Shown one piece after another: positions 1,272 through 16,459 of a DNA stretch of 64,000 bases (position 1 is the first letter of the stretch; each line of letters begins with the position of its first letter). Where the stretch lies: the sequence record MW233709. One strand, 5' to 3'. The notes under the pieces were generated by a model that saw nothing but the letters and a program-made list of their open reading frames with translations, was not told the origin of the DNA and did no database searches. The DNA comes from Escherichia phage UPEC01. A program made the translations under genes and the position numbers.

Positions 1272-3332
1272 ATGTCTGAACAATTAAATGAACTCTTTGA
1301 CAAATATATCGAAGCCTTCGGTTATCCTGTCATTAATATGAACCCAAAATACAAGGTCCCACAGGTTTGGCAATTCGGTGTTCCTGGGACAAATTCTCTT
1401 ATGGCTCGTTTGATGCAATTCACGGGCAAAGAAACGGTTAAACAATATAAACGCGGTGATGCGATTGCCGAGGTATTTCTGTTATCCGGGACTTCACATG
1501 GCCATGCTATTCCTCTGAAGGGTGGTCTAGGTGAAAAACCTCTTGACGCGATTAACCTGATTTTTGTTACAGTCTGGGAAAGCATTAAACTAGGTAAACC
1601 TGATGTAGTCTTGTTCCGTTTCCCATCCAAAAAGATGAAAGGACAAGACCAAGCTGTTATTCGTATTATGAATCGACTGATTCAAATGAAAACCAGCGGA
1701 CGTTATCATGTTCTTCCGAATGCTTCTGGCCTCGGTAAAAAGAACGCTTATGTAATTATGTACAAAAAGGGTGTTGACCTGCTTTCGGTTGATGGTATGC
1801 CACCAGTCCCTGAGAAATATCAAAAAGTTGAAACTAAAGTTGGCGATGTATTCACCAATAAAGATACAGGCGCGCAAGTCTCCAAACAAGAAATCGCAGC
1901 CGAAGTTCTGATTAACGCAGCAAACAAAAAGACCGACGCAGCTGTTGCCCAGAAAACTAAAATCAGTCGCCGAGCTATTGCACAAGCCCAGTACGCACCA
2001 AGTGATTCCGTGCCAGAAGGTTGGGACGAAATTGATGCAGAAGCTGCTAAGTTTAGTCGACCGGCTACGGCAGAACTTATCGATGATTATGAAGAACTGG
2101 AAATTTTTGTTCGACCTTCCGAAACGAATACTATGGCTCGTATGCGCGCCGCGGATACGGCTATGCGAGCAAATGGTGTTTGGAAAGAAGAAATTCGTGT
2201 TGAAGACTCTGACCCAATTTTTAACCGTATGCATCGTGAACTTAAACGTGCCCCAGTTGGTAGCATGAAGCAGATGCAGATTTTTGCCGAATCATGCGCA
2301 GAGATTCTTAACCTTCGCAAAGCCGCATTTATCGAAAGAAAAATGAATGATGCTCCTCCTAACCTGGATGCAGCCACTTATGCAGCCTCGCTCTGGGAAA
2401 AAGAATACACAAGCGCCATTCGTGTTGCAGTTAAAGACTTTGCCGAAGAAGCATCAGAAAATACTCTTAATTTCACAGCAGGGTATACTGACAACCGTTT
2501 CCATTATGGCCAGCGAGAAGCAATTGCAGATTATTGTGGAGCAAACTATGCCGATATTAATAATTATTTGATGGGCAAATATTATGAAGAAGAAGCTGAA
2601 TTCCTAAATCTAGACAGAGTTGTCGAAACAATTAAGGAATTGGATTCGGCCTTTGAAATTGGACATAAGTTGCCGCCTAATACAACTCTTTGGCGTGGTC
2701 AATATTTAAATGTTCCTACATTTGATAAAATTAAGCAATCGAAATTATTTTATTTCAGGAACTATGTATCAACGTCGTTTAAACCGATTATCTTTGGTGG
2801 TTGGGTGGCGAACGTTGCTATGGCTGCAGTTCATCAGGACTATCGTGATGGGACATCTTTCCAGGCTGATGACGAAATTGTTTTACCAGATATGCCGGAT
2901 GCACGCCGCGACCACGTAATGATGCATGTTGGTTGGAAAATTTCTGGGGCGGACTTAATTAACGTAATTGTTCCTGGGGAATTGTCAAGCAACCCGTCCG
3001 AGCAGGAAGTTATTCTTCCTCGTGGGACTGTAGTTAAGATTACCAAAATTACTGATGCTTCGTATCAAGGAAACGCGAACGTCAAAATGCTGGAAGCTGA
3101 TATCCAGACTACGGACCAACTGGATGAAAATGCAGTTATCTATGATGGCGATGTGTTGATGGAAACTGGTGAGCTTGTCGTTTATCAGGGCGAGGAAACA
3201 GAAGAGCCAGTAGAATCTGTTGACTTTGCATCGTTTGCATCCTCTGGTGTAACGAAGAAAGTCAATCAAGGTCTTGGTATTCTTGCTAGTTGTATTAATT
3301 TGGAAGCTATTCCTCCTAAATTCCTTTCGTAG
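1272..3332 (+). CDS. alt: Alt, packaged ADP-ribosyltransferase
   Basis: 686 aa; segments ETKVGDVFTNKDTGAQV...KISRRAIAQAQ, FYFRNYVSTS, LMETGELV and C-terminal DFASFASS...GILASCI match T4 Alt (about 682 aa, recalled); late promoter TATAAATA 25 nt upstream. Confidence 0.9.
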   Translation: MSEQLNELFDKYIEAFGYPVINMNPKYKVPQVWQFGVPGTNSLMARLMQFTGKETVKQYKRGDAIAEVFLLSGTSHGHAIPLKGGLGEKPLDAINLIFVTVWESIKLGKPDVVLFRFPSKKMKGQDQAVIRIMNRLIQMKTSGRYHVLPNASGLGKKNAYVIMYKKGVDLLSVDGMPPVPEKYQKVETKVGDVFTNKDTGAQVSKQEIAAEVLINAANKKTDAAVAQKTKISRRAIAQAQYAPSDSVPEGWDEIDAEAAKFSRPATAELIDDYEELEIFVRPSETNTMARMRAADTAMRANGVWKEEIRVEDSDPIFNRMHRELKRAPVGSMKQMQIFAESCAEILNLRKAAFIERKMNDAPPNLDAATYAASLWEKEYTSAIRVAVKDFAEEASENTLNFTAGYTDNRFHYGQREAIADYCGANYADINNYLMGKYYEEEAEFLNLDRVVETIKELDSAFEIGHKLPPNTTLWRGQYLNVPTFDKIKQSKLFYFRNYVSTSFKPIIFGGWVANVAMAAVHQDYRDGTSFQADDEIVLPDMPDARRDHVMMHVGWKISGADLINVIVPGELSSNPSEQEVILPRGTVVKITKITDASYQGNANVKMLEADIQTTDQLDENAVIYDGDVLMETGELVVYQGEETEEPVESVDFASFASSGVTKKVNQGLGILASCINLEAIPPKFLS

Positions 3333-3715: not shown

Positions 3716-4673
3716 ATAATATACGTTGACTTCCACCAGAGACTGTTCTCCCAGAACCAGTGAACGTATTGTACAGACTTGTTAATCCAGATTGAGCACC
3801 AGACAAGCGGCTCAATCTGGCAACTTCTGAGTTCAAGTTGTTATCTGAACTAATACCAGATACACCTTTAATAACCTTATCTTCCAACCATTCCAATGCC
3901 GCAGCTCTTCCCACCGCACCAGTTGACATAACGCGATAAGCAAAAGTCACATCAAATGTAGCTATCTGATTATCCCCTTCATAACTCAATTCAGGTGCAG
4001 ATACACTTACAGGAACACAACCAGTTAACATAACAACCGTATGCGGTAACCCATTACGCGAATGAAGGTTAACCTGAATATCAGCTTCAACGTCTTCAGG
4101 CAAGGCCCTTAGCTGGGTAACTGGGTCCTGTACAGAGTTGACCCAATCGTTAAATGCTCTAAAGTTCCCTGCCTCTGAATCCATTCTAAAGCTCAATACC
4201 AACGGAGAATATTCTCTCCCGGTTATCTTGATATTTGGTGCATTATGGTTAAGGTCCATTTCGTAGTTCAATGTGTTATCCGGAAGCTTAACAGAGTGAA
4301 CTAATAGACCAGCCGTTGGATAAGCCATATTAAAGAAATCAAGCAGGTAAGTACCAACCTCAAATTCCCCTAGTAACGATTGCACAACACGGTTACTCAT
4401 TGCCCCGATAAGATATTTGCTTATCCCTGATTTGCGAATAAGCTTTTGTGTCCCGGCAGTAACAAGAGTTGTTATCCCCTGAGTTAAGTCACCTTGTGTT
4501 AATCCGAACCAATCTGAGTTAACAGGAAGGTTACTGAATAATGCGCCACCGAACTGGTCCAGAAGATTCTGAGATTTGGAGGAAGGCGTGGTCGCGAAGA
4601 CCACACTAAAAAGGTTATTCCTCTGCAAGTCGATATTAATCGCTTGTGTTTGAAATTCTTGTAAAGTAAACAT
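3714..4673 (-). CDS. 54: baseplate tail-tube initiator gp54
   Basis: 319 aa; position and size match T4 gp54 (320 aa recalled), downstream of 48 in the 29-48-54 block. Confidence 0.8.
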   Translation of the reverse strand: MFTLQEFQTQAINIDLQRNNLFSVVFATTPSSKSQNLLDQFGGALFSNLPVNSDWFGLTQGDLTQGITTLVTAGTQKLIRKSGISKYLIGAMSNRVVQSLLGEFEVGTYLLDFFNMAYPTAGLLVHSVKLPDNTLNYEMDLNHNAPNIKITGREYSPLVLSFRMDSEAGNFRAFNDWVNSVQDPVTQLRALPEDVEADIQVNLHSRNGLPHTVVMLTGCVPVSVSAPELSYEGDNQIATFDVTFAYRVMSTGAVGRAAALEWLEDKVIKGVSGISSDNNLNSEVARLSRLSGAQSGLTSLYNTFTGSGRTVSGGSQRIL

Positions 4674-5767
4674 TAGAAACCTTCCGCATATAGTGAGCCA
4701 CGGTTAAGCGTAATGATTTCACGGAAAGTGATTTCAAGTACAAAAGTCGATGGCAGGTTAGGAGCAATAGCTAATCCACCGAAATGACCATCCGGAGATT
4801 TATCGAATCTTATGCTCTGAATCTGACATGGCCCAAATAGCTCCCCACGGCCATCGTACGAGCTTGTATCACCGAAGTTGCGGATATACCAGATAGTAGG
4901 GTTAGAGACCACCAGAACGTTCGTTAGGAAGCTTGTTATCTCTTCACCGAGCAACTTGCCGTCAAAGTTATCGATTGCTTCCTTTTTGAAGGTGGATTTA
5001 TACCATGTATCGATTTTATCTTTCAGCTCGGAAGCAAACGAACTTTTACCGGTTTCCCCATAGGAGTAATAGTTAAAAATCTCGTATATCTTCACTATCT
5101 GGATTAAGTCCTGGGCCGAACGTGGAGTCATTTCCCAGGTGTAAACTTTTGTCCTGTTATCAGGACCAGCATACATGCTTCGCGCGGTTGTGTAAATCTG
5201 TTCGCCGTGGTCGGCCATTACACCATTTGTAACTGATTCGAGGGCGCCGAAAACTGCAGTCGATGCGATGTTACTAAGAATACCTGTAGCTGAGCCGCCA
5301 CCTTTCGTAATAAGAGATTCACCAACATCGTTGAATCGGTGCGATACGGATTCTACATCAGACTTCGAACGAGGCAACAGGATATTTGCAACAGCGTTTG
5401 AATCAAAACTTTTACCTGTTGAGCCAGCGCCGGTTAATTTCGATTTAGCAAAAGATGTTAAACTTTTAACCGGGTTAAATGAAGCACCATTGGAAACTTT
5501 CTTTAATGAAGTCAATTGGCTTGACCTGTCTGAGCGTAATTCCGGAGATGTTCTTGAACTGAAATTGTATGCCGTGAATAACAGACCATTTTTATAAAGG
5601 TCATTAACTCGCATATCATCTGAAGAATCATTACCGGAAGCTCGTTCTGCTGGATATTGCGCCACAATAGTAGCTTGAGTCTGGGCAGCTTTTGACTGCC
5701 CAGCGGAGGTCTTAGAACCTCCGTTAAATAAACCCGCAATATCAATATCGAGTTCTTTTACTTTCAT
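4673..5767 (-). CDS. 48: baseplate tail-tube cap gp48
   Basis: 364 aa, same length as T4 gp48; ATGA-type overlap with downstream gene 54. Confidence 0.8.
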   Translation of the reverse strand: MKVKELDIDIAGLFNGGSKTSAGQSKAAQTQATIVAQYPAERASGNDSSDDMRVNDLYKNGLLFTAYNFSSRTSPELRSDRSSQLTSLKKVSNGASFNPVKSLTSFAKSKLTGAGSTGKSFDSNAVANILLPRSKSDVESVSHRFNDVGESLITKGGGSATGILSNIASTAVFGALESVTNGVMADHGEQIYTTARSMYAGPDNRTKVYTWEMTPRSAQDLIQIVKIYEIFNYYSYGETGKSSFASELKDKIDTWYKSTFKKEAIDNFDGKLLGEEITSFLTNVLVVSNPTIWYIRNFGDTSSYDGRGELFGPCQIQSIRFDKSPDGHFGGLAIAPNLPSTFVLEITFREIITLNRGSLYAEGF

Positions 5768-5775
5768 GTTATTCC

Positions 5776-7521
5776 TTAGTTAATTCTCGTGGCCTGTCTC
5801 ATGCCAGGGGCAGGGGTTGAACTTTGAGGAGGCATATTGTATTGCGTCCTGGAAGTCTTCTGAATATTATTGACCGTGTTAATTTGTGCCTGAGCTGGTA
5901 CATCCTTGTATTTATTTTCTTTGGCCTTCATGCCTTCGTCAACCTTCGCAGCTTGTTGTGCATCCGGAGAAGTCTTAACATCCGGCGGTTTAACTTTCGG
6001 TTCGTCTTTGAACTTCTCGAGAGACTTATCAAGTTTTTCCAACAGGGCGCGCATATTCAGGTCTTTCGGAGCCCCACCTTTTGCCATAGCTGGGTCAGCT
6101 AATTGTTTTTCAATTTTAGCTCTCATTTCCATCGCATTCTTTTTATCGGTTGCGTCTGGCTTCATTAGGTTGTCAGCAGTTTGGGTCAAACGAATAATAT
6201 CAGCCTGTGCTTTGTCACGCTTCTTGAAATAGTCCAGACGTTCTTCTTCTGGAAGGTCTCTGAAGCTTGTGTCAATACCACCCGCGCGAAGCTGGTCAGC
6301 TTGTTCCTTGGTAAGGTTACCATATTTTTCGGCTTGATTAATTAGTTCAGGTTTATCCTTATACTTCTTATTCATCTTCTCTGCAGCTTCCATTGCTTCG
6401 GCCGAACGTTTGTCATGATATTTTGCTATCTTGGTTTGGTCTTCATCATCCAGAGTTGCCCCTGTATTTTGCTGATAAGACATCAAAGCTGAGGCTTCCA
6501 CATTATCTGCTAAATCGCCCATCCCAGGGATTTTGCTTAAGATAGCTGAAATCAGTTTCGAAATACCAAGCATAAGAAGTTGAGCCATGTTCTTCGTTAA
6601 GTTGACCATTCCGCGAATAATCGCTTCGGCTAATCCTAACCAGTTCCTTTCACTAAACATCGCTTCGGCGTTCTTAGCCCAAGTCATTAGTCCTTCAAGC
6701 AACGGTCCCCATTCTTTGAACTTATCATTAAATTCGGCCCAGCCTTTTTCGAATTGCTTCATGAAATATTGGAAGTAAACTCGTATTGCATCGATACCGA
6801 ATACCAACAACAATAATCCACCAATAAGCTTGGCTGCTTCGGCTGCTGCCGTAATTGTATATTTGAATAGCATCCCGGAGATTCGGTCAGCTACAGAAAT
6901 CGATGCCTTAAATCCTTTTTCGGTTATCTTCGAAAGGGTATCAAGCTTATCACCAAGTGACCAGGTATTAGTCTCTTTACCTTCTGCATCGTTTTTTGGC
7001 TGTTCTGGTTCCGGAATGAAGTCTGCATCGGGCTTTTTTTCTTCTGGCGGTATGAGCGCTGGAACGCTCGCTGTGGGCTTATTCTCTTCAGGCTCTGGTA
7101 GTGCATCCTCCACAGGTTTAAGGCTTTCAGAACCAGCCACAGGAGACGTGACGCCTATTTTACCGCTTATCATTGCACTGAGTTTGTCGAGCTTATCCGA
7201 GAGAATATCCGTGAGGTTTTTAATCCCTTGTTGAGTCTTCTCGGTGGCTTCGGCCGTTAGTTCGACCCCAGCACTGATATCCTGGAGGACCCCATTGTTG
7301 GTCTGGATATTCTCAATAATCTGATTACCCTTATCCTCAATAGCTTCCGATACAAGTTCGGTTGCAGCTTGAGTATTTGTAAGAGTTGTATTCAGATTCG
7401 ATAATTCATCATTCTGTTCAGCAGAGAGGGCTTCCGCCCTCCTTTGTGGTGCTAATTCTTCGATAAGCTTTTTATTAGGTCCACCGCGTCTGAAGCTCGT
7501 TTGTTCGGAGTTTTTATTCAT
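5776..7521 (-). CDS. 29: baseplate hub / tail-length determinator gp29
   Basis: 581 aa (T4 gp29 590 aa recalled); low-complexity Ala/Glu/Lys-rich stretches typical of tape-measure-like proteins; conserved gene order. Confidence 0.8.
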   Translation of the reverse strand: MNKNSEQTSFRRGGPNKKLIEELAPQRRAEALSAEQNDELSNLNTTLTNTQAATELVSEAIEDKGNQIIENIQTNNGVLQDISAGVELTAEATEKTQQGIKNLTDILSDKLDKLSAMISGKIGVTSPVAGSESLKPVEDALPEPEENKPTASVPALIPPEEKKPDADFIPEPEQPKNDAEGKETNTWSLGDKLDTLSKITEKGFKASISVADRISGMLFKYTITAAAEAAKLIGGLLLLVFGIDAIRVYFQYFMKQFEKGWAEFNDKFKEWGPLLEGLMTWAKNAEAMFSERNWLGLAEAIIRGMVNLTKNMAQLLMLGISKLISAILSKIPGMGDLADNVEASALMSYQQNTGATLDDEDQTKIAKYHDKRSAEAMEAAEKMNKKYKDKPELINQAEKYGNLTKEQADQLRAGGIDTSFRDLPEEERLDYFKKRDKAQADIIRLTQTADNLMKPDATDKKNAMEMRAKIEKQLADPAMAKGGAPKDLNMRALLEKLDKSLEKFKDEPKVKPPDVKTSPDAQQAAKVDEGMKAKENKYKDVPAQAQINTVNNIQKTSRTQYNMPPQSSTPAPGMRQATRIN

Positions 7522-8032
7522 TTAGGAGTTCCATTATTTTCAGTAACCCCTTAACAGGACCATTCGGGCCCGGGATTGCTAATGTGCTTGTTATATCGTC
7601 TGCCCACTTAGCAACAAAAGCAGGCATATCCAGAAAGTCTGGAACATCTTCCCCGAGATAAAGGGTCTCCAGGAGATTGTCAACTGGTCCGAATTCTTCA
7701 TACGGTTTATTGGAGCGGAATTTAAATGTCTTTCCTTGATAAGAGAATTCAAGGCGCTGACAGATATAAACATCATCCAGCTTATATGTAAACCCATCAA
7801 TCTCACGTTTGTCTTTTAGCTTACCATTAAATTCCAGAAGATGTAAAGATACAAAGTCGGATTCGGCTGCTGTAAGATTAGGGAATATCGATTGCATAAT
7901 CTTTCTTAATGCAACATAAGGATTAGGTTCGTTTTTAATCAGATTGTGATGCTTGAGTCCAAGCTTGGGAACGTGAATCTCTTTATCACCCAGCTGTATT
8001 TTCTTCGTCGGCAGAATCAGTTTTAAGTTCAT
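7514..8032 (-). CDS. 28: baseplate hub distal subunit gp28 (start uncertain; track ORF extends to 8074)
   Basis: Internal ATG at 8032 preceded by AAGG; begins [11 protein letters not shown]; C-terminus ...[18 protein letters not shown]; size about 172-186 aa vs T4 gp28 177 aa. Confidence 0.7.
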
Positions 8033-9155
8033 TTTTAACCTTCGGTGGTTCTTCAACTTCGATAGGCTTACCATTGGTAAACATATAGAGGTTTGTAATT
8101 GATGTATTGTTACTCACTTCATGAATAACTTCGTCTACGTAAAAATCATATTTGAATTGGTTCTTAGGGTCAAAGAAATTTATCTTATCACCCGGGGTCA
8201 GTTCAAAGTTCCCGTATGTTTTGCAATGTGCGTAACCGTCATATTGTGACATGGTTATTAATCGCTGAGCTTCCTCGAAACCATTTCGGTATGTGTAATC
8301 TGCATAGCCCCCGGAACGAGATACCAGAATACTGTTTTGTCCTTCCCCAAAAGTTATTCTGGTTGCGTTCTTATCAAGGAATGAATGCGCATACACGGTT
8401 GCGTTTTCATATGGTTTTCTTGTATGTTGGTTCGCCTTTGTTAACCATTCAAAATCGAAGGCTAAAGGAGTAGTCAGGTTTTGTACAAATTGCCCAACCA
8501 ATCGAGGTTCCCCCACCACAAAATTAATTGGCTCTTGTGATGTTAGCCATTCATAATCCTGGATACTTATTCCATCAATATCTTCCCATACAAAAACAAA
8601 TTTATCAGTTTCTACCGACAGGCCAACTTCCCTTATGAATTCCATATATTGGTTCATCGAATCACACCATGGAACGTTAGGAGCATAAACGTTTATGCCG
8701 TTTATTGGTGGGGAAAGTAATGGTCTATCTTGATAAATTACCCCGGTCATTTCGACTAATGTTTCCTGTACGCTCGGGTAAAACATACGACTAAATTTCA
8801 AGTCTTCAATTTCGTGAATAGGAGCCAGCTGAATTGTAATTATGTTATCACCCTTTGAATCCACGGAAACAGCAAAGTGTTTACTTCCATATATTCTGGA
8901 TTGGGTTCGGTCGGAGTTAGCATTCTTAACAGAAATCTGAATAACCTGTTCACCATTCATTTTTGTATGCAGGTTTTTCGTATCATAGAATTGCAAGAGC
9001 CCCTCGTTTCTTCCATAAAGGGAATCACGCATGGTTAACGTTGTAAAGGTGGCAGCTAGTTCCACAAAACGGTGTTCAAGCCATGCATCATAATCTTCGT
9101 AAAGGCGGATGCTGATATTAGGAAAGCCTTCACGCTGCATAGATTTAACTGTCAT
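7986..9155 (-). CDS. 27: baseplate hub subunit gp27
   Basis: 389 aa; ...[57 protein letters not shown] matches T4 gp27 (391 aa) as recalled. Confidence 0.9.
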
Positions 9156-9904
9156 TTTTTCAAGTCCTTCTCAACTAGTGATAAAGCAATACCTCGTTCA
9201 ATAGGAATCATATGCATGATGCTATCTAGCGAATATTGATTCTTTACCAGCAAGTGGTTAATTTGATAAAATATAAAGACTTCATCCGGGTTAAGGATAA
9301 GCTTAAAGACGTCAAGCAGGTCAGTATATTCGGTTTTGTGCTTTTCACAACAGCCATATGTAAATGGAAGATAAACCGAATGCATTTTCTTAAGGAGTGC
9401 TTCGAGGCTCTCTATATCAATTGCATCGATAACCTGCATCTTTGTTTCTTCAGGGAGGTCTTCCCAATTGTATTTTTGTTCCGAGTCTTCGACGGTCTGG
9501 ATGGTATTCAATACAAGCTCTGACTTATCTTTATATTCCACTTCAGGGAACTTAAACTGTATTTTTATCCCGGCGGTTTCCATCGTTGGATTTACTAATG
9601 GACCCTGATTCATGTTAAACAAAGTCTGCTTTGTCTTTTTACATTTTTGACATTCAAACGCTACCGGGACTTTTGTCTTACCGATAGAGGAAGTGAATAC
9701 CTTCAGGAATATGTAAGGCCTCCATGCTTTTGGATATTCTCCAAAATAATCTTCCAACAGTTCGTCTAATAATTGTTTTTGTTCTTCGACGGGTTTGTTG
9801 TTCATGTCGTTTCGCACAAGCAGTAAATCACGGTAATCAGCGACTGTAAACGGTTTGAAACGATGAACTCCGTCTGGCATTTCACATCTTACGATATTGG
9901 CCAT
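9152..9904 (-). CDS. 51: baseplate hub assembly catalyst gp51
   Basis: 250 aa (T4 gp51 249 aa); Cys-rich (CQKCKK, CCEKH); late promoter 25 nt upstream on minus strand. Confidence 0.8.
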
Positions 9905-9928
9905 AGAATCCCCTTTTATCTTTATTGA

Positions 9929-9940
9929 TATTTATAAATA
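9929..9940. promoter_or_regulatory. back-to-back overlapping late promoters for gene 51 (minus) and gene 26 (plus)
   Basis: TATTTATAAATA: TATAAATA on plus at 9933-9940 and on minus at 9929-9936, each 18-25 nt from its start codon. Confidence 0.7.
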
Positions 9941-9957
9941 CAGTAAAGGAGCAAATT

Positions 9958-10581
9958 ATGACTTATGAATTTATTGTCCAAATTAAAAATAAAACTATAA
10001 ATTGTAGGGCTTTTACCTTGCGCGAATACAAAGATTTGCTTCAGGCAAAATTAGAAAAGCGTATGGAACCTGCAATAATTGAACTGCTTAATAAATGCAC
10101 TGATGCTAAAGGGCTAAACAAACAGGAAGCCGAGCTGCTTCTTATTAATCTCTGGGCAAATAGTCTCGGAGCTGTTAACGTCGAGCATACATGGGTATGT
10201 GAGTGCGGAAAGGAACAAGATATTCCTGTGACTATAAGTCGCGCAAACATCGTGGATGAGTCTGAAGTTATTCGTGATTTCGGGGCGTTTAAAATTAAAT
10301 TCCGTTATCCTGGGCTATTTGAAGACGGTGATAAAGGAAAAATGATTGCTTGCTGTATCGAATATATTATCACGGAAGGCGGTGAGCGCATCGTTGTTGA
10401 TGACTTAAATGAAGCCGAAATCGAGGACCTGTACAATGCAATTACCCTCGATGATATAAATGCACTAACAGAAGAACTTCTCAAGCCACAGGTCCAAATG
10501 GCTATTCCTATCTCTTGCGAGTGTGGAGCACATTCTGTCCATGTAATTAAGGGGCTTAAAGAATTCTTTAAGTTTATGTAA
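9958..10581 (+). CDS. 26: baseplate hub subunit gp26
   Basis: 207 aa from ATG 9958 with AAAGGAG RBS (T4 gp26 208 aa); late promoter TATAAATA 9933-9940. Confidence 0.8.
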   Translation: MTYEFIVQIKNKTINCRAFTLREYKDLLQAKLEKRMEPAIIELLNKCTDAKGLNKQEAELLLINLWANSLGAVNVEHTWVCECGKEQDIPVTISRANIVDESEVIRDFGAFKIKFRYPGLFEDGDKGKMIACCIEYIITEGGERIVVDDLNEAEIEDLYNAITLDDINALTEELLKPQVQMAIPISCECGAHSVHVIKGLKEFFKFM

Positions 10582-10971
10582 ATGAATATAAACAAAATGT
10601 ATAGCGATGTGTCTCCCGACTTATCTACAAGTTGGGATAAAGACGTTGCTAAAGTAACCGGTGCAAGGTCTGTTAAGAACAGTCTTCTGGGAATAATCAC
10701 CACAAGAAAAGGGTCAAGGCCTTTTATGCCTGAATTTGGATGTGATATAAGTAATCAGCTTTTTGAGAATATCACTCCATTAATCACAGATACCATTAAA
10801 CGCAACATCGTCTCCGCTGTGCGGAACTTTGAACCAAGGATAAGCAATCTACAGGTTGCAGTTGTCCCTATGTATGATGATAACTCCATTATCGTAACGG
10901 TTCAGTTCAGCATTGTTGATGACCCTGATACCCTCGAACAAATCAGGATTCAGCTAAGTCAAAACGGTTAA
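10582..10971 (+). CDS. 25: baseplate wedge subunit gp25 (gpW/lysozyme-like fold)
   Basis: 129 aa (T4 132 aa); TAAATG coupling with gene 26; conserved position between 26 and uvsY. Confidence 0.88.
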   Translation: MNINKMYSDVSPDLSTSWDKDVAKVTGARSVKNSLLGIITTRKGSRPFMPEFGCDISNQLFENITPLITDTIKRNIVSAVRNFEPRISNLQVAVVPMYDDNSIIVTVQFSIVDDPDTLEQIRIQLSQNG

Positions 10972-11007
10972 TGCTTTAATTTTATGGCTGTATAATGGTT
11001 CTAGACC
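10972..11007 (+). promoter_or_regulatory. MotA-dependent middle promoter upstream of uvsY (ori(uvsY)-equivalent position) with GGTTCTAGACC box
   Basis: MotA box TGCTTTA 10972-10978, 12-nt spacer, TATAAT 10991-10996, then GGTTCTAGACC 10997-11007. Confidence 0.7.
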
Positions 11008-11024
11008 CTTACATTGGATACATT

Positions 11025-11459
11025 ATGAAAACAGAGATTGAATATAAGTTGGAAGTCTTTCAGGACGAGTTAGATGCAGATTTAAAAATTGATGGTACAC
11101 AACTTCAATATGAAACACAAAACAACGTTTTGTTGCATAGCAAATGGTTGAGATTGTATACCAACTGCAAGAAAGAAATAATGCGTCTTGAGATTCAGAA
11201 GAAAACTGCACTGAAAAAACGACTAGACCATTATACGGGAAGGGGTGACCCAGGGGAAGAAGTATGCATGGATGTGTACGAGAAGTCAGAATTGAAAACA
11301 GTCATGGCCGCAGATTCAAGCGTGTTGAAGATTGATACTTCAATTCAATATTGGGCACTGCTCCAGGACTTCTGTAGCGCTGCATTAGATGGTGTTAAGT
11401 CACGAAGTTTCGCACTTAAACATATGTTAGAAATAAGACAATTTGAGGCGGGCAAGTAA
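11025..11459 (+). CDS. uvsY: UvsY recombination mediator
   Basis: From ATG 11025: MKTEIEYKLEVFQDEL...LQYETQNNVLLHSKWL...YWALLQDFCSAALDGVKSRSFALKHM...FEAGK, matching T4 UvsY as recalled; MotA-box middle promoter immediately upstream. Confidence 0.9.
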   Translation: MKTEIEYKLEVFQDELDADLKIDGTQLQYETQNNVLLHSKWLRLYTNCKKEIMRLEIQKKTALKKRLDHYTGRGDPGEEVCMDVYEKSELKTVMAADSSVLKIDTSIQYWALLQDFCSAALDGVKSRSFALKHMLEIRQFEAGK

Positions 11460-11692
11460 TGCGATATTCTATCGACGATGCGTTTAACCAAGACGAAGAG
11501 TTCGAAGAAGAAATTAAGTATATGATGAAGGAATGGAAATTGAATCGTGCAGATATTCGTATCTGCGCTGACCACCCTTGTGGTGAAGATGTTATCTATG
11601 TTAAAGGTAAATTTGCGGGATACATCGATGATGCGTTCTATTCTCACAATATGGGAATAGATACTGGTATGAGATACTTTAAGGAAAATTAA
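11459..11692 (+). CDS. hypothetical protein (uvsY.-1-like)
   Basis: 77-aa ORF coupled to uvsY stop (TAATG); conserved position. Confidence 0.6.
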   Translation: MRYSIDDAFNQDEEFEEEIKYMMKEWKLNRADIRICADHPCGEDVIYVKGKFAGYIDDAFYSHNMGIDTGMRYFKEN

Positions 11693-11803
11693 ATGAAAAA
11701 TATTAGTAAGATTCTCGACGAGATGGTTATCTCTGCAAACCGAATAACCGAAATTGTTAATGAGATGAAAGCTCGTGCTGCTATTATGAAGAGCACTAAA
11801 TAG
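11693..11803 (+). CDS. hypothetical small protein (36 aa)
   Basis: ATG 11693 immediately after previous stop; reads MKNISKILDEMVISANRITEIVNEMKARAAIMKSTK; below ORF-track size cutoff. Confidence 0.35.
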   Translation: MKNISKILDEMVISANRITEIVNEMKARAAIMKSTK

Positions 11804-11831
11804 ATATGTAAGTTTAACTGAGGAGACAATC

Positions 11832-11999
11832 ATGTCAGATAAGATTTGTGTTGTCTGTAAAACTCCAATCGATTCTGCATTGGTTGTGGATACAGACCAA
11901 GGTCCGGTGCATCCGGGCGCCTGTTATAATTATGTTCAGAGTTTGCCAGTTACGGAAAATACAGAAGAGCAACTGAACGAGACCCAACTTTTAATTTAG
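11832..11999 (+). CDS. hypothetical small CxxC protein (uvsY.-2-like)
   Basis: ATG 11832 with GAGGAG RBS; reads MSDKICVVCKTPID...; 55 aa. Confidence 0.45.
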   Translation: MSDKICVVCKTPIDSALVVDTDQGPVHPGACYNYVQSLPVTENTEEQLNETQLLI

Positions 12000-12056
12000 C
12001 TAGTGTTGTTAACCATTTTTGGTTTTGCCCCTTCCTTTTGGTTGGGGCCTTTTTAT

Positions 12057-12284
12057 TTAGAAATCTTCGTCTTCGTCTTCGTCCATATCCTCAAGCTCGG
12101 CACGTTTACCGGCAAGAGCGTCACGAACACTGATATCATCGGAATCTTTCAGTTCAGCTTCTTTGCTGCGTTTCTTATAATAGCCTTCCAACTCCTTCAG
12201 ACCGTCCATGGTCTGACAGGAACCAATCTTAGCCATAAAGCCTTCAATTGATGCTTCGTACATAATTTCTTCGAAGGATTTCAT
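12057..12284 (-). CDS. uvsW.1: UvsW.1 small acidic protein
   Basis: 75 aa, MKSFEEIMYEASIEGFMAKIGSCQTMDGLKELEGYYKK...EDEDF; matches T4 UvsW.1 as recalled. Confidence 0.75.
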   Translation of the reverse strand: MKSFEEIMYEASIEGFMAKIGSCQTMDGLKELEGYYKKRSKEAELKDSDDISVRDALAGKRAELEDMDEDEDEDF

Positions 12285-12979
12285 TATATTTCCACCTGTT
12301 TAATTAAATTTCTGATTTTATATAAAGAAAGCCCCGTTGCTACAGAAGCTTGCTTCATCGAACCATATTCAATCCCGTTTAAAACCACTTTCTTAGCGGC
12401 AGGATTTTTGGATGGGTCTTTATAACGTTCTTTTGCTTTATCTGAAATTTTCTTTGATGCTTCTGGTGTATGTGATTTACCATACATCCAATTACCTTCA
12501 CCTTTATTTCTTTCGGATATAGCTTGACATTGTGCTTGAGAGTATTTATACGGATTCGCTTTCTTTGTCGCAGATATTTTATCGGCCCAAGTTATTTTGC
12601 GACCCTTTAATAATTGGCTCATATATTCTTTATGTTCTTCAGTATGGTGCTTACCATAAAAAGGATTGCCTTCACCAGTCTGAAGAACTGACATTTGTCT
12701 ACGCTCCCATCCATACGATTTATTGAATTGTCGTTGATGTGTTCGAGAGCTCATACCCATAGCAATGACGGCCTTTATAAGACCGTAATGATTGGGATGA
12801 ATTTTGGCCAATAATTTATGTGCAATAAAATGTTCTTCCGGAGTAAGGTTGACTCTGTTTTCTTGTGTATCAGGTCCACCCATACATTCTGGAATGATAT
12901 GGTGAGATTCCGTGTATCCAATCGGTTTGGAAGCCTTTCGGCTCCCAATTAAATCATCATATATTTTTTGATAATTCAA
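12284..12979 (-). CDS. free-standing HNH homing endonuclease with two NUMOD3 motifs and a C-terminal HTH-like tail (Mob-like)
   Basis: HNH core ESHHIIPECMGG...NRVNLTPEEHFIAH; NUMOD3-like repeats GEGNPFYGKHHTEEHKEYMS and GEGNWMYGKSHTPEASKKIS; TTG start overlapping uvsW stop (TTGA); last six codons IKQVEI duplicate the uvsW C-terminus. Confidence 0.85.
   Translation of the reverse strand: MNYQKIYDDLIGSRKASKPIGYTESHHIIPECMGGPDTQENRVNLTPEEHFIAHKLLAKIHPNHYGLIKAVIAMGMSSRTHQRQFNKSYGWERRQMSVLQTGEGNPFYGKHHTEEHKEYMSQLLKGRKITWADKISATKKANPYKYSQAQCQAISERNKGEGNWMYGKSHTPEASKKISDKAKERYKDPSKNPAAKKVVLNGIEYGSMKQASVATGLSLYKIRNLIKQVEI
12288..12306. repeat. 19-bp direct repeat, copy 1 (HNH gene 3' end / uvsW.1 ribosome-binding region)
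   Basis: Identical to 12980-12998. Confidence 0.9.
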
Positions 12980-14475
12980 ATTTCCACCTGTTTAATTACA
13001 TAGTTAAAACGTTCATCAGCATATCGTTGTATACGTTCAAGGCCATGTTTTAGGGCAAAGTTCAAATGAACATATTTCTTTTTAGCATTTGCCGATTTAG
13101 GTTTAACACCCATATCATCAACGATATCAAAAACGTTTGCTTGTGATTTGGATTCATGTTTTCTAAGCACACGACCAATTGTCTGGAGTACAATTACCTT
13201 TGACTTGACCGGGTGAGCGAAAATAATATGATGGAGGTTTTTAACGGAAATCCCCGTTGAGAATACACCATATGAAGCTACAACAATAATTCCCTTTCCA
13301 TTCTCTGCCATGACCTTCAGAGCATTACGAGTTTCGGTATCGACTTCCCCAGAAACATAATACACTTTTTCATGACCAGCTTCCTTAAGCATTTCAAACA
13401 TCGATTTACCATGCTCGATATTCTTAAACATCAAAAAGACGTTTTCATCTTTTTTAGAAAGCTTGAGTGCAAGGTTTGTTACCCATTTATTTCGGCGTGC
13501 AGCTTTTGTAATTACCTTGATTTCATCCTGATAAGTTTTACCTTTCATTTTAACGGTGAATTCATCAGGGTAACGAAGGAAAATACTATTTATTTTAAGG
13601 TCAGTAACCTGACCATCTTCCATTAATTTAGATGTTGATACTGGTTTAAAGATATCACCAAACAGACCCATATATTGCATAAGGTTGGCTTTGCCATCAC
13701 GGAGTGAACCTGACAGACCAAATTTAAACATGCAATTCGTAAGGCCTTCGATAACCGTCGAAATCGATTTACCTGTAGCCATATGACATTCGTCATTCAT
13801 AAACTGACCGAACTGTTCAAACCATTCTTTAGGTTGTTTTACAGCCGTCTGATAAGTCGATACATAAATCATCGCATCAGAATCGCGTTTAGTCCCGGAA
13901 CGAATACCCAGACAAGCTGCACGAGGGAAAAGCCGATAATCAACAAAGTCATTAATCATCTGGTCAACAAGGGCCGTTGTAGGAACAAGGATAAGTACCT
14001 TGCCTTCATAGTTCTCGAGATAATATCGCGCCAGAAGCGCCTGGATGAGGCTTTTACCTGCAGACGTAGGTAAGTTCAGAATCTTTCTTCTGTTGACCAG
14101 ACCATCATATACGGCGTCAGATTGATACCAATGGGGCGTTATCTTGGTATTGCCTGAATAGATTTCTTTTGACTCGACCCATTTGTCGAATTCTTCGCGA
14201 GAGATTTCTTCTTTCTCGGTGATTTGCGGGTCAATCCAGAATGAATAACCAAACTGGTCAGCGAACTTTTTAATTTGATTAACCAAACCGTATGGTAATT
14301 TACGATTGTAATCCAGGAGGCGGATTCGTCCGTCCCAAACTCCCTGCTTGAACTTTGGATTGAAGCGATAGTTTTCAGCTTCGAAGCTGAAGTAATCACG
14401 GAGTTCGTAGAAGATTCCATCTTCACATTCAACATGCACGTGACTAAAATTTAGAAAGTTGATTTTAATATCCAT
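12976..14475 (-). CDS. uvsW: UvsW DNA helicase (SF2)
   Basis: From ATG 14475: MDIKINFLNFSHVHVECEDGIFYELRDYFSFEAENYRFNP...; Walker A LPTSAGKS, DECH box MNDECHMA; about 500 aa as in T4 UvsW; late promoter 29 nt upstream. Confidence 0.9.
   Translation of the reverse strand: MDIKINFLNFSHVHVECEDGIFYELRDYFSFEAENYRFNPKFKQGVWDGRIRLLDYNRKLPYGLVNQIKKFADQFGYSFWIDPQITEKEEISREEFDKWVESKEIYSGNTKITPHWYQSDAVYDGLVNRRKILNLPTSAGKSLIQALLARYYLENYEGKVLILVPTTALVDQMINDFVDYRLFPRAACLGIRSGTKRDSDAMIYVSTYQTAVKQPKEWFEQFGQFMNDECHMATGKSISTVIEGLTNCMFKFGLSGSLRDGKANLMQYMGLFGDIFKPVSTSKLMEDGQVTDLKINSIFLRYPDEFTVKMKGKTYQDEIKVITKAARRNKWVTNLALKLSKKDENVFLMFKNIEHGKSMFEMLKEAGHEKVYYVSGEVDTETRNALKVMAENGKGIIVVASYGVFSTGISVKNLHHIIFAHPVKSKVIVLQTIGRVLRKHESKSQANVFDIVDDMGVKPKSANAKKKYVHLNFALKHGLERIQRYADERFNYVIKQVEI
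12980..12998. repeat. 19-bp direct repeat, copy 2 (uvsW 3' end)
   Basis: Identical to 12288-12306. Confidence 0.9.
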
Positions 14476-14503
14476 GATGATTCCAAGGTAATAAATATAT
14501 CTA

Positions 14504-14511
14504 TATTTATA
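14504..14511 (-). promoter_or_regulatory. late promoter TATAAATA (uvsW)
   Basis: Octamer on minus strand 29 nt upstream of uvsW ATG. Confidence 0.6.
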
Positions 14512-14529
14512 CACTAACCGAGGTTCATC

Positions 14530-15195
14530 ATGATTGACAAGAACTACATTGAGGAAATTCGTGTCCTCGAGAAAAAAGAAGCCAAAGAAAAATTAGCCGA
14601 ATACGCAGCATCACTTGGTGTTGATGTTAAGAAAACAAAAACCTTTGATAATATGTTGGCCGACCTGGAAGCAGGACTTAAAGCATTTGCTGACATGCCT
14701 ATGCCTGATGATAATGAAGGCCTGAGCATCACTGACCTTATCGACGCCGATGATGAATTGTCAGGTGCTAAATTTGATGGCGACGAGTCAGCTAAAGAAG
14801 AAGCTAAACTCTTATTTGATGCTCCAACCGAAGCAAAGGTTGAAGTTGTTGAAATCGAAGAACCAGTTGTTGTGGTTGAAGAAGATGTTCCTTTTGTCGA
14901 AGAAAAGTTCGAAGCGGCTGTTGCTAAGGTTATCGAATCTGAAAAACCTGTATTTGCTCTGCCAAAAAACTTTAGCCCGAATTTAATGCTTATTGGTAAG
15001 AACCCTGGATTCTGTACTGTTCCATGGTGGATTTATCAGTGGATTGCCGAGACTCCAGATTGGAAAGAACGTCCAACTGCTTTCCCACATCCCACCGCGC
15101 ACCAAACTCTATTCAGTTTGATTTATTACATCAATCGTAATGGGTCTGTTCTAGTACGAGAAACTCGTAACTCATCTTTTGTCACTTTAAAATAA
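14530..15195 (+). CDS. putative Inh-like protein (inhibitor of prohead protease), assignment by position only
   Basis: 221-aa acidic protein between uvsW and hoc, where T4 encodes inh (about 226 aa, recalled); no sequence-level confirmation. Confidence 0.45.
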   Translation: MIDKNYIEEIRVLEKKEAKEKLAEYAASLGVDVKKTKTFDNMLADLEAGLKAFADMPMPDDNEGLSITDLIDADDELSGAKFDGDESAKEEAKLLFDAPTEAKVEVVEIEEPVVVVEEDVPFVEEKFEAAVAKVIESEKPVFALPKNFSPNLMLIGKNPGFCTVPWWIYQWIAETPDWKERPTAFPHPTAHQTLFSLIYYINRNGSVLVRETRNSSFVTLK

Positions 15196-15204
15196 GGGTT
15201 TATT

Positions 15205-16338
15205 ATGGCTTATACCGTAACTATTGCTCCTTTGGCGGCTACGGCCGTTATTGGAGCAACAACCAATTTCACTGCGACCGGTTCCGGTGCTGCAGCTGAA
15301 GGTACCGAATCATTTGTCTGGACCGTTGATGGCGTTCCTCAATCTTCTGTGACTGCTGCAATGGATTATGTTGCTGTTGGTCCAGCAGGCAGTAAGACTA
15401 TTAAAGTTGTTGCAACAACTACACCAGCGGACGGCGAACCAGAAACAGCTGAAGCCGAAACAACTTTAACTATCCAGAATAAAACAATGCCTGCTATTAC
15501 ATTGACTTTAGACCCGGCCTCTGTTACTAAAGAAGTGGGGCAATCTCAAGTTGTTACTGCTAACGTGACAGGCGCTCCTTCTGGTGCAACAATCGCTTAT
15601 GTTTGGAAACGAAATGCCGACGTAATCGCAGGTCAAACTGGTAAAACTATTACCGTCACCGAATCAGCAGAAGCAAATTATACATTGAACTGTGAAGTTA
15701 CTGTTTCTGCACCCGATTATAATAATGGCACCGCATCTAAAGGAGCTGCGGTAACTTTTGTTAAGAAAACTATGTCGGGTGTTTCTGTTACTTTAGCACC
15801 AACCTCTATTAATGTTCCTGAAGGAACTCCGGCTTCATTTAAAGCAGATGTAGTTGGCGCACCGAGTGGAGCTACTTTTGCCTATTCTTGGAAGAAAGAC
15901 GGTTCTCCTGTAGTTGGCACCACGGATACTTTAGCAATCGATACAAGCGCCGAAGGTTCCCAGTTAATTGAAGTTTCTGTTGTTGTATCTGCTACAGATT
16001 ATAATCCTGTTACAGTTACCAAAACCGGTAATGTAACAGTCACGGCTAAAGTCGCACCAGTTCCAGAGGGTGAACTACCTTACGTTCATCCGCTGCCAGT
16101 TCGTAATTCAGCTTATATCTGGTGTGGTTGGTGGGTTATGGATGAAATTCAGAAAATGACTCTTGCTGGACAAGACTGGAAAACCGATGACCCAGATAGC
16201 CCGTATTATTTGCACCGATATACACTTCAAAAAATGATTACCGACTATCCAGAGGTTGATGTACAGGAATCTCGTAATGGTCGAATTATTCATCGCACCG
16301 CTTTAGAAACTGGTATTATATACGATTACGTTTATTAA
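15205..16338 (+). CDS. hoc: Hoc, outer capsid decoration protein with Ig-like domains
   Basis: 377 aa; repeated Ig-like segments and C-terminal ...PEGELPYVHPLPVRNSAYIWCGWWVMDEIQKMT...DWKTDDPDSPYYLHRYTLQKM... match T4 Hoc as recalled. Confidence 0.9.
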   Translation: MAYTVTIAPLAATAVIGATTNFTATGSGAAAEGTESFVWTVDGVPQSSVTAAMDYVAVGPAGSKTIKVVATTTPADGEPETAEAETTLTIQNKTMPAITLTLDPASVTKEVGQSQVVTANVTGAPSGATIAYVWKRNADVIAGQTGKTITVTESAEANYTLNCEVTVSAPDYNNGTASKGAAVTFVKKTMSGVSVTLAPTSINVPEGTPASFKADVVGAPSGATFAYSWKKDGSPVVGTTDTLAIDTSAEGSQLIEVSVVVSATDYNPVTVTKTGNVTVTAKVAPVPEGELPYVHPLPVRNSAYIWCGWWVMDEIQKMTLAGQDWKTDDPDSPYYLHRYTLQKMITDYPEVDVQESRNGRIIHRTALETGIIYDYVY

Positions 16339-16340
16339 TT

Positions 16341-16370
16341 AAAAAGGGACCTTCGGGTCCCTTTATTTTT
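16341..16370 (+). terminator. rho-independent terminator after hoc
   Basis: AAAAAGGGACCTTCGGGTCCCTTTATTTTT. Confidence 0.85.
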
Positions 16371-16459
16371 ATGGTACTGAGCAAACGTTGTCTGGACCCT
16401 TTCTCCAGTGAGTCTTTGTGGTCATACCATAACAATTGTTCATCTGACATAAAACTCCT

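Follow-up and report, generated by a model that had tools for sequence, protein, structure and literature searches.

How can a selfish gene lodge in the overlapping stop/start junction of two coupled phage genes and harm neither? The question arises in a 64-kb stretch of Escherichia phage UPEC01 (MW233709), called here the window and used for all coordinates, in which the helicase gene uvsW and uvsW.1 are separated by an open reading frame (ORF) of 231 amino acids (aa), all three lying on the minus strand. The initial annotation saw in this ORF a recently inserted HNH homing endonuclease gene, bracketed by an exact 19-bp repeat resembling a target-site duplication. That reading is essentially right, with corrections on the insertion point, the size of the mobile unit and the nature of the repeat. 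The ORF is very probably a free-standing HNH homing endonuclease of the T4 Mob family, predicted to be active and, as we infer, to home. Neither neighbour would be harmed because the element duplicates the six-codon tail of uvsW and, with it, the ribosome-binding site. The argument below relies on the following features.

12976-14475, minus strand: uvsW helicase gene, 499 aa plus stop (ORF list and Pfam; a gene of 1500 nucleotides (nt) is likewise annotated in SP18 and VR7)
12284-12979, minus strand: predicted free-standing Mob-type HNH homing endonuclease gene, 231 aa (ORF list, Pfam, homologues)
12057-12284, minus strand: uvsW.1, 75 aa (Pfam UvsW-1, 4.5e-24; 228/228 nt identical to TH41)
12980-12998, minus strand: uvsW-side repeat copy, encoding the UvsW end (V)IKQVE(I), with AGGTGG 4 nt before the endonuclease TTG
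12288-12306, minus strand: uvsW.1-side repeat copy, the native uvsW tail, encoding the endonuclease end (L)IKQVE(I), with AGGTGG 7 nt before the uvsW.1 ATG
13003-13174, minus strand: diverged uvsW 3' patch, a putative one-sided co-conversion tract with 34 differences from TH41 and its outer edge in the helicase motif VI codons (LQTIGRVLR)

The endonuclease gene and its product

The product combines a predicted HNH nuclease core with modules typical of DNA binding. Pfam recognizes NUMOD3 (PF07460) in two stretches with 68 bits against a cut-off of 20.4, which bears out the two motifs initially proposed, and scores the general HNH model (PF01844) at 13.7 bits (E 0.071) against a gathering threshold of 21.4. 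The HNH residues recognized at the outset hold on alignment: H27, N41, H50 and H54 are invariant across 48 homologous sequences. The modules map as follows.

12818-12916, minus strand: predicted HNH catalytic core, residues 22-54, YTESHHIIPECMGGPDTQENRVNLTPEEHFIAH, aligning to the HNH motifs of EcoKMcrA and IscB
12599-12682, minus strand: first NUMOD3 motif, about residues 100-127, GEGNPFYGKHHTEEHKEYMS, boundaries approximate (sequence reading and an orthologue match at residues 94-122)
12443-12526, minus strand: second NUMOD3 motif, residues 152-179, the best Pfam stretch
12305-12391, minus strand: C-terminal strand-strand-helix-helix module, about residues 197-225, resembling the DNA-binding helix-turn-helix of I-TevI and I-HmuI

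The AlphaFold model (predicted local distance difference test, pLDDT, 86.9) is an extended chain composed of an N-terminal strand-strand-helix unit, helical NUMOD3 segments and a C-terminal strand-strand-helix-helix unit, for which fold searches return weak domain-level matches only (the I-TevI DNA-binding domain, a phage HNH nuclease and I-HmuI). The family assignment comes from sequence comparison: the protein matches phrog_655, 'homing endonuclease', at 5.6e-57, its tblastn matches to annotated genes include mobE of RB59 (3e-19), mobE of Aeh1 (3e-18) and mobD of RB6 (3e-16), and the orthologue in phage ACG-C40 is annotated 'MobE'. Against four orthologues, the ratio of nonsynonymous to synonymous divergence (dN/dS) is 0.02-0.10, denoting strong purifying selection. 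SP18 and many other records already list the gene as a homing endonuclease; a literature search for an endonuclease gene at the uvsW/uvsW.1 junction found no description of it and no characterization of this lineage.

The TTG start, overlapping the uvsW stop (aTTTGA) as first annotated, is real, since orthologues carry ATG or GTG at exactly that position and share the N-terminus MNYxKIY. This conserved N-terminus holds the catalytic histidines. The RefSeq coding sequence of SP18 (NC_014595.1, gp197, 199 aa, locus 986-1585) starts at the internal Met33, so that the conserved N-terminus and the catalytic His26/His27 are missing from the annotated protein. At its other end, the endonuclease stop overlaps the uvsW.1 ATG (TAATG).

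Occupied and empty sites

The window is 98.4% identical across the locus to Shigella phage SP18, a Gaprivervirus, and the members of this genus are polymorphic for the gene at one precise site: five records carry it (four genomes, SP18 being deposited under two accessions), two carry a different HNH gene and about 20 are empty. The empty sites of VR7, TH41 and EAWsc9, read directly, have the structure ...AACTATG TAATTAAACAGGTGGAAAT ATAATGAAA..., in which the uvsW stop TAA overlaps the uvsW.1 ATG; these are the uninterrupted junctions with a single 19-mer that the initial annotation had anticipated among relatives. Scanning IMG/VR for exact matches to the native junction gave three contigs and no added occupied sites.

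The most informative empty relative is TH41. There are zero differences between the window and TH41 over 3818-12306 (8,489 nt, all of uvsW.1 included) and again over 13175-15627 (2,453 nt). The intervening sequence differs solely by the 692-bp insert and by 34 substitutions, which all fall at 13003-13174. This 172-nt patch diverges by 20% from TH41, mostly at synonymous positions (dN 0.027, dS 0.276), and is 98% identical to the patch of the other occupied phages: a tract of donor-type sequence beside the gene in an otherwise TH41-type genome, as co-conversion would leave it. The comparison supports a recent acquisition of the cassette by gene conversion on a TH41-like backbone, and it makes the patch a candidate location for the endonuclease target, present here in immune form. 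With 11 kb of identity broken only by a gene and a one-sided tract, the pair would document a natural homing event very cleanly.

The lineage itself extends much further. By tblastn, 74 phage records contain full-length orthologues (57-99% aa identity), adjoining uvsW in every row listed, and belong to seven genera of the Straboviridae: Gaprivervirus, Dhakavirus, Moonvirus, Jiaodavirus, Gualtarvirus, Bragavirus and Tequatrovirus. In Jiaodavirus, 13 records (query included) have the gene and the next 27 listed are empty. In five genera, an occupied genome was set against the nearest empty relative available, over three segments: uvsW from 261 to 441 nt before its stop, the 240 nt that immediately precede the six-codon tail, and uvsW.1. 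The BLAST identities (%) are given in this order.

Window vs TH41: 100 / 86 / 100
UP19 vs NC-G: 99 / 82 / 96
ACG-C40 vs T4: 99 / 83 / 99
PM2 vs Pm5461: 99 / 75 / 99
PSE-D1 vs Mineola: 99 / 88 / 100

This one-sided pattern in five genera indicates that a diverged uvsW 3' allele constantly accompanies the endonuclease gene, whereas nothing on the uvsW.1 side is linked to it. For six of seven pairs, divergence reaches back to a point 198-255 nt upstream of the uvsW stop, at or just past the codons for helicase motif VI (LQTIGRVLR), and the likely target can be confined to the final ~200-250 nt of uvsW. Between Gaprivervirus and Dhakavirus the gene has 80% nucleotide identity and its flanks 75-78%, and its dS between genera reaches 1.1-1.4; since its divergence matches that of the flanks, the lineage is old, though its acquisition in the window appears recent. 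For the uvsW 3' end, dN/dS values between genera were implausible, with saturation (dS was incomputable for several pairs) or unmodelled indels as the probable cause, and BLAST identities were used instead.

Two other histories of presence and absence have to be weighed. The first reverses the polarity: the window lineage would be the older one, and an ordinary recombination with an insertion-free phage would have removed gene and patch from TH41. Two sequences do not suffice to polarize a gene-conversion event, and insertion-free Gaprivervirus records commonly carry the TH41-type patch; both points favour such a loss. Ordinary recombination, however, has no reason to place its boundary exactly at the gene end and to leave uvsW.1 unexchanged in five genera, and endonuclease-driven conversion predicts transfer towards the empty genome. 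We consider the reversal improbable; it would in any case leave the identity of the element unchanged.

The second history, which we rate as somewhat less probable still, makes the gene an old and possibly domesticated vertical resident whose patchy distribution results from repeated deletion between the direct repeats and not from homing. The parallel divergence of gene and flanks between Gaprivervirus and Dhakavirus, the between-genera dS and the strong purifying selection already described would all fit, and so would VR7 with its single 19-mer. Phage VR7 (NC_014792.1) lacks the endonuclease gene, yet its uvsW 3' patch is of the occupied type (98% identity with the window); patch and single 19-mer are as a precise repeat-mediated deletion would leave them. 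The surrounding VR7 backbone is only 90-93% identical. VR7 may have undergone such a scarless loss through the 19-bp repeat, or conversion may have stopped short of the gene, presumably leaving an immune allele in either case. Deletion is nevertheless unable to create a 172-nt patch of 20% divergence in the otherwise identical TH41 comparison, or the one-sided patch seen likewise in five genera. It should moreover leave the occupied-type patch in all empty genomes, whereas VR7 alone has it among the four read directly (TH41, EAWsc9, VR26 and VR7). When the predicted scarless-deletion sequence was used as a query, 19 insertion-free Gaprivervirus records were recovered, of which the two VR7 records scored best (93.9%) and the other 17 lower, at 87-92%.

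The 19-bp repeat and the proposed homing mechanism

The 19-mer ATTTCCACCTGTTTAATTA occurs in exactly two copies in the window, at 12288-12306 and 12980-12998, with no further match at up to two mismatches; none of 100 dinucleotide shuffles yielded one (0 expected by chance). The repeat first reported around the ORF is therefore confirmed, and its similarity reaches 21/22 nt when extended. On the coding strand, both copies read TAATTAAACAGGTGGAAAT and encode (V/L)-I-K-Q-V-E-(I); the Shine-Dalgarno sequence AGGTGG lies within them. Both copies being the same coding tail, UvsW and the 231-aa protein end alike in IKQVEI, and the initial observations of this shared end and of intact uvsW.1 initiation signals are borne out by the sequence. 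The 19-mer is unchanged in the insertion-free Gaprivervirus VR7, TH41 and EAWsc9 and differs by one base in VR26.

The uvsW gene of the window finishes ...GTA ATT AAA CAG GTG GAA ATT TGA, of which the last six codons and the stop would be the element-side, or 'surrogate', copy. The repeat is a duplication of the last six uvsW codons, ribosome-binding site included, and not a target-site duplication of the transposon type: its uvsW-side copy would belong to an imported uvsW 3' segment and its uvsW.1-side copy to the recipient's own tail. The ORF does lie between those of uvsW and uvsW.1, as first described, but the insertion point itself falls within the last six uvsW codons. The mobile unit would likewise be larger than the ORF and comprise ~170-250 nt of diverged uvsW 3' end, the surrogate six-codon tail and the endonuclease gene.

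Other genera display the same architecture with less perfect repeats. All 11 copies read (nine of this lineage in seven genera, two of a second lineage introduced below) have an NTGA start/stop overlap, and in most genera the native uvsW tail is read in frame as the end of the endonuclease ORF, which terminates at the native stop overlapping the uvsW.1 start. In Dhakavirus, the endonuclease ends in NLMKQVDL, the native tail (YVMKQVDL* in NC-G), and UvsW of occupied genomes ends in MKEVQI*. In Tequatrovirus, the endonuclease ends in RKTVNL*, followed by the native hairpin and Shine-Dalgarno sequence, and UvsW ends in VMKTVNL in T4 and KEVKL* in occupied genomes. Bragavirus PM2 has a 16-bp exact repeat whose downstream copy matches the empty site of Pm5461, and in Jiaodavirus the repeat is reduced to ~9 matching nt. 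The uvsW-side copy is thus diverged or shortened in four genera other than that of the window, and the target-site-like duplication initially proposed gives way to a duplicated uvsW tail and ribosome-binding site.

The two copies in the window are identical because the tail is nearly invariant in Gaprivervirus and both copies are constrained by coding and by ribosome binding. Their exactness is no age marker, since TH40 has both exact copies, yet its endonuclease gene differs from that of the window at dS 0.28. Of the recent homing insertion first suggested, recency is supported by the TH41 comparison and draws nothing from the exact repeat, and it holds for the acquisition in the window, not for the lineage with its seven genera.

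A transposon-like insertion, in which staggered cleavage and fill-in would have produced a true target-site duplication, is hardly credible. An exact direct repeat does bracket the element and empty sites are single-copy, but terminal inverted repeats are missing from the insert, as is any transposase or integrase gene, its sole ORF being the HNH endonuclease. Homing proceeds by homology-directed repair and creates no duplications (PMC2988022). The repeat corresponds exactly to the coding tail plus ribosome-binding site needed by both neighbours, and the uvsW-side copy differs from the native one in Dhakavirus, Tequatrovirus, Jiaodavirus and the second endonuclease element, where it is continuous with a diverged uvsW tract of 200-250 nt and so was imported, not made at insertion. 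The missing inverted repeats and the comparison across genera largely refute the transposon-type reading.

Acquisition by homing can be pictured as follows. In a mixed infection, the enzyme would nick or cut the uvsW 3' region of a gene-free phage, by analogy with MobE, and repair from the donor would then copy the immune uvsW 3' patch together with the endonuclease gene. MobE nicks nrdB at a distance of ~120 nt from the mobE gene, at a site where mobE+ phages have polymorphisms that protect them (PMC2790892). We lean slightly towards a target within the uvsW patch, which is expected because the linkage is constant to this patch and absent to uvsW.1; the same linkage suggests that the occupied allele is immune. 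In the resulting layout, the uvsW-side copy completes UvsW with IKQVEI and provides a Shine-Dalgarno sequence to the weak TTG start. The initiation context of the endonuclease is weak in three respects: the TTG codon, a Shine-Dalgarno spacing of only 4 nt and the overlap with the uvsW stop. The overlap implies a translation coupled to that of uvsW and, judging from the Mob literature, probably held low; in mobE, overlapping start and stop codons have been read as a translational coupling that limits endonuclease expression (PMC2988022). At the downstream end, the ORF enters the displaced native tail in frame and uses the native stop codon, with which the uvsW.1 ATG overlaps. The native tail being displaced intact, uvsW.1 keeps its own Shine-Dalgarno sequence (7 nt) and its stop-start coupling.

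Several points weigh against this account. The literature search found no paper on cleavage, nicking or preferential inheritance by this lineage. The direction of the difference between the window and TH41 is not provable from two sequences, and TH41 could have lost the cassette by recombination. The lack of donor polymorphism on the uvsW.1 side in any genus is explained by inference only, and the codons separating occupied from empty alleles across genera associate weakly, so that no target site can be named.

Two such codons were noted. A Lys codon 36 nt before the uvsW stop (~13010-13012) is AAA in 5/7 empty genomes and CGT, AAG, CAA or CAG in most occupied ones; a codon 156 nt before the stop (~13130-13132) is Trp TGG in 5/7 empty genomes and Phe TTT or TTC in most occupied ones. 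They are possible target or immunity positions, the association being weak and without phylogenetic control.

A second lineage uses the same site. In the Gaprivervirus P479 (985-1770) and vB_YenM_P8 (489-1274), a 261-aa HNH endonuclease is found at exactly the same position. It has only the HNH domain (54% over 65 aa) and the last six residues in common with the protein of the window, those six residues deriving from the native tail; its C-terminal domain is unrelated and lacks NUMOD3, and it passes the Pfam HNH threshold with 24.2 bits. The arrangement is equivalent, with an ATG start in CTATGA, a surrogate tail VKHVEL* and read-through into IKQVEI*, and its carriers likewise show a one-sided diverged uvsW tract. 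Orthologues of this second endonuclease adjoin uvsW in Dhakavirus Bp7 and in Enterobacter, Acinetobacter and Aeromonas phages. With two endonuclease lineages at it, the uvsW 3' end is a long-standing insertion site for homing endonucleases.

Related systems and neighbouring signals

The closest described architecture is that of mobile ORFs in fungal mitochondria, in Allomyces macrogynus atp6 and in Glomus atp6, atp9, cox2 and nad3 (PMC3630166). There too, an endonuclease ORF sits in the 3' end of a host gene together with a foreign, diverged copy of the C-terminal coding sequence, and the native C-terminus is displaced downstream of the ORF, sometimes still in frame (PMC3630166). In the window, by contrast, the displaced piece amounts to 6 codons, reused as the endonuclease C-terminus and as the uvsW.1 ribosome-binding site, and the endonuclease is translationally coupled, not fused, to the host gene. 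The fungal enzymes are LAGLIDADG or GIY-YIG proteins of an organelle, whereas this one is an HNH protein of a phage; the likeness is architectural only and the enzymes are not homologous. Taking these parts together, we tentatively propose, at slightly less than even confidence, that the uvsW 3' end hosts the phage counterpart of these C-terminus-swapping mobile ORFs. If so, the cassette would always bring its own immune replacement of the segment from helicase motif VI to the C-terminus, and the duplicated tail would permit a scarless loss that leaves an immune allele, of which VR7 is maybe an example. Two lineages with unrelated DNA-binding domains would have taken the same architecture at the same nucleotide position, and the element would drive allelic turnover of an essential helicase in at least seven genera.

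As for the enzyme, the nearest comparison is T4 MobE. Like MobE (and MobA-D), the protein joins a homologous N-terminal HNH domain to a lineage-specific C-terminal DNA-binding region (PMC2790892). Both are free-standing genes wedged between two co-transcribed essential or conserved genes, with a start codon overlapping the upstream stop, a conserved neighbour whose polymorphisms are linked to the presence of the endonuclease, and flanking co-conversion. They differ in location (nrdA/nrdB for mobE, uvsW/uvsW.1 here) and share ~33-37% identity. Unlike MobE, the protein of the window has a C-terminus with NUMOD3 and helix-turn-helix modules and a TTG start, and its gene lies inside the last codons of the upstream gene, the tail of which is duplicated. 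A nuclease combined with NUMOD3-type helices and a C-terminal helix-turn-helix also recalls I-HmuI and I-TevI, but both of these are intron-encoded and the window enzyme is free-standing. It has the classic HH...N...H catalytic motif (McrA-like, lacking zinc-binding cysteines) and neither the HNH_3 type of I-HmuI nor a GIY-YIG domain. T4 SegE, finally, is a homing endonuclease encoded between inh and uvsW that also exploits uvsW as target or neighbour (PMC2988022); it is a GIY-YIG protein of unrelated sequence located on the 5' side of uvsW.

The locus is a clean but ordinary case of a known kind of phage parasite and not a new kind of system. It defines an uncharacterized Mob-type lineage and a second one sharing its site, and available phage pairs make it testable how nicking Mob enzymes promote one-sided gene conversion.

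Two late promoter sequences complete the description of the locus.

14504-14511, minus strand: T4-type late promoter TATAAATA, 5' of uvsW (an identical 24-nt context lies 5' of segE-uvsW in T4)
12543-12550, minus strand: candidate internal late promoter TATAAATA for uvsW.1, inside the endonuclease ORF (consensus match)

The first presumably drives a transcript of uvsW, the endonuclease gene and uvsW.1. The ORF list gives uvsW as 12976-14514, but the GTG at 14514 sits upstream of this promoter and the actual start is therefore the ATG at 14475; Pfam recognizes UvsW_N, ResIII and Helicase_C in the product. The second lies ~260 nt upstream of uvsW.1 and is kept in all Gaprivervirus and Dhakavirus copies of the gene despite differing adjacent bases; it was not found in the orthologues of other genera. 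It could be an internal late promoter restoring uvsW.1 expression, or a mere coding coincidence (NPYKY). Consensus scans for sigma-70 promoters and terminators were uninformative.

An AU-rich hairpin of 11 bp (UUGAAUUAUCA...UGAUGAUUUAA, -7.1 kcal/mol) at 12946-12979 on the minus strand, the first 34 nt of the ORF, includes the TTG start. Considered as a possible translational control, it was rejected, being weak, no better than shuffles in a 100-nt context, and weaker or absent in other genera.

In the T4 reference (NC_000866.4, locus 3154-3260), uvsW and uvsW.1 form one fused ORF of 587 aa, and the GC hairpin region after the uvsW stop differs between this reference and ACG-C40 (TTAATAAGCTTCGGCCC vs TTATAAGGGCTTCGGCCC); this agrees with a sequencing error already known from the literature (PMC1524935).

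Upstream of uvsW (14475-14530) come its own late promoter and then the divergently transcribed inh (phrog_1051). The GIY-YIG gene segE, located between late promoter and uvsW in T4, is absent from the window, where inh directly abuts uvsW. From 15628 onward, substitutions relative to TH41 become dense, with 14-25 per 200 nt over 15601-16200 and 5 per 200 nt beyond, and the alignment breaks at 16395-16444. The interval 15628-16444 is another mosaic boundary, in the inh/hoc-side region.

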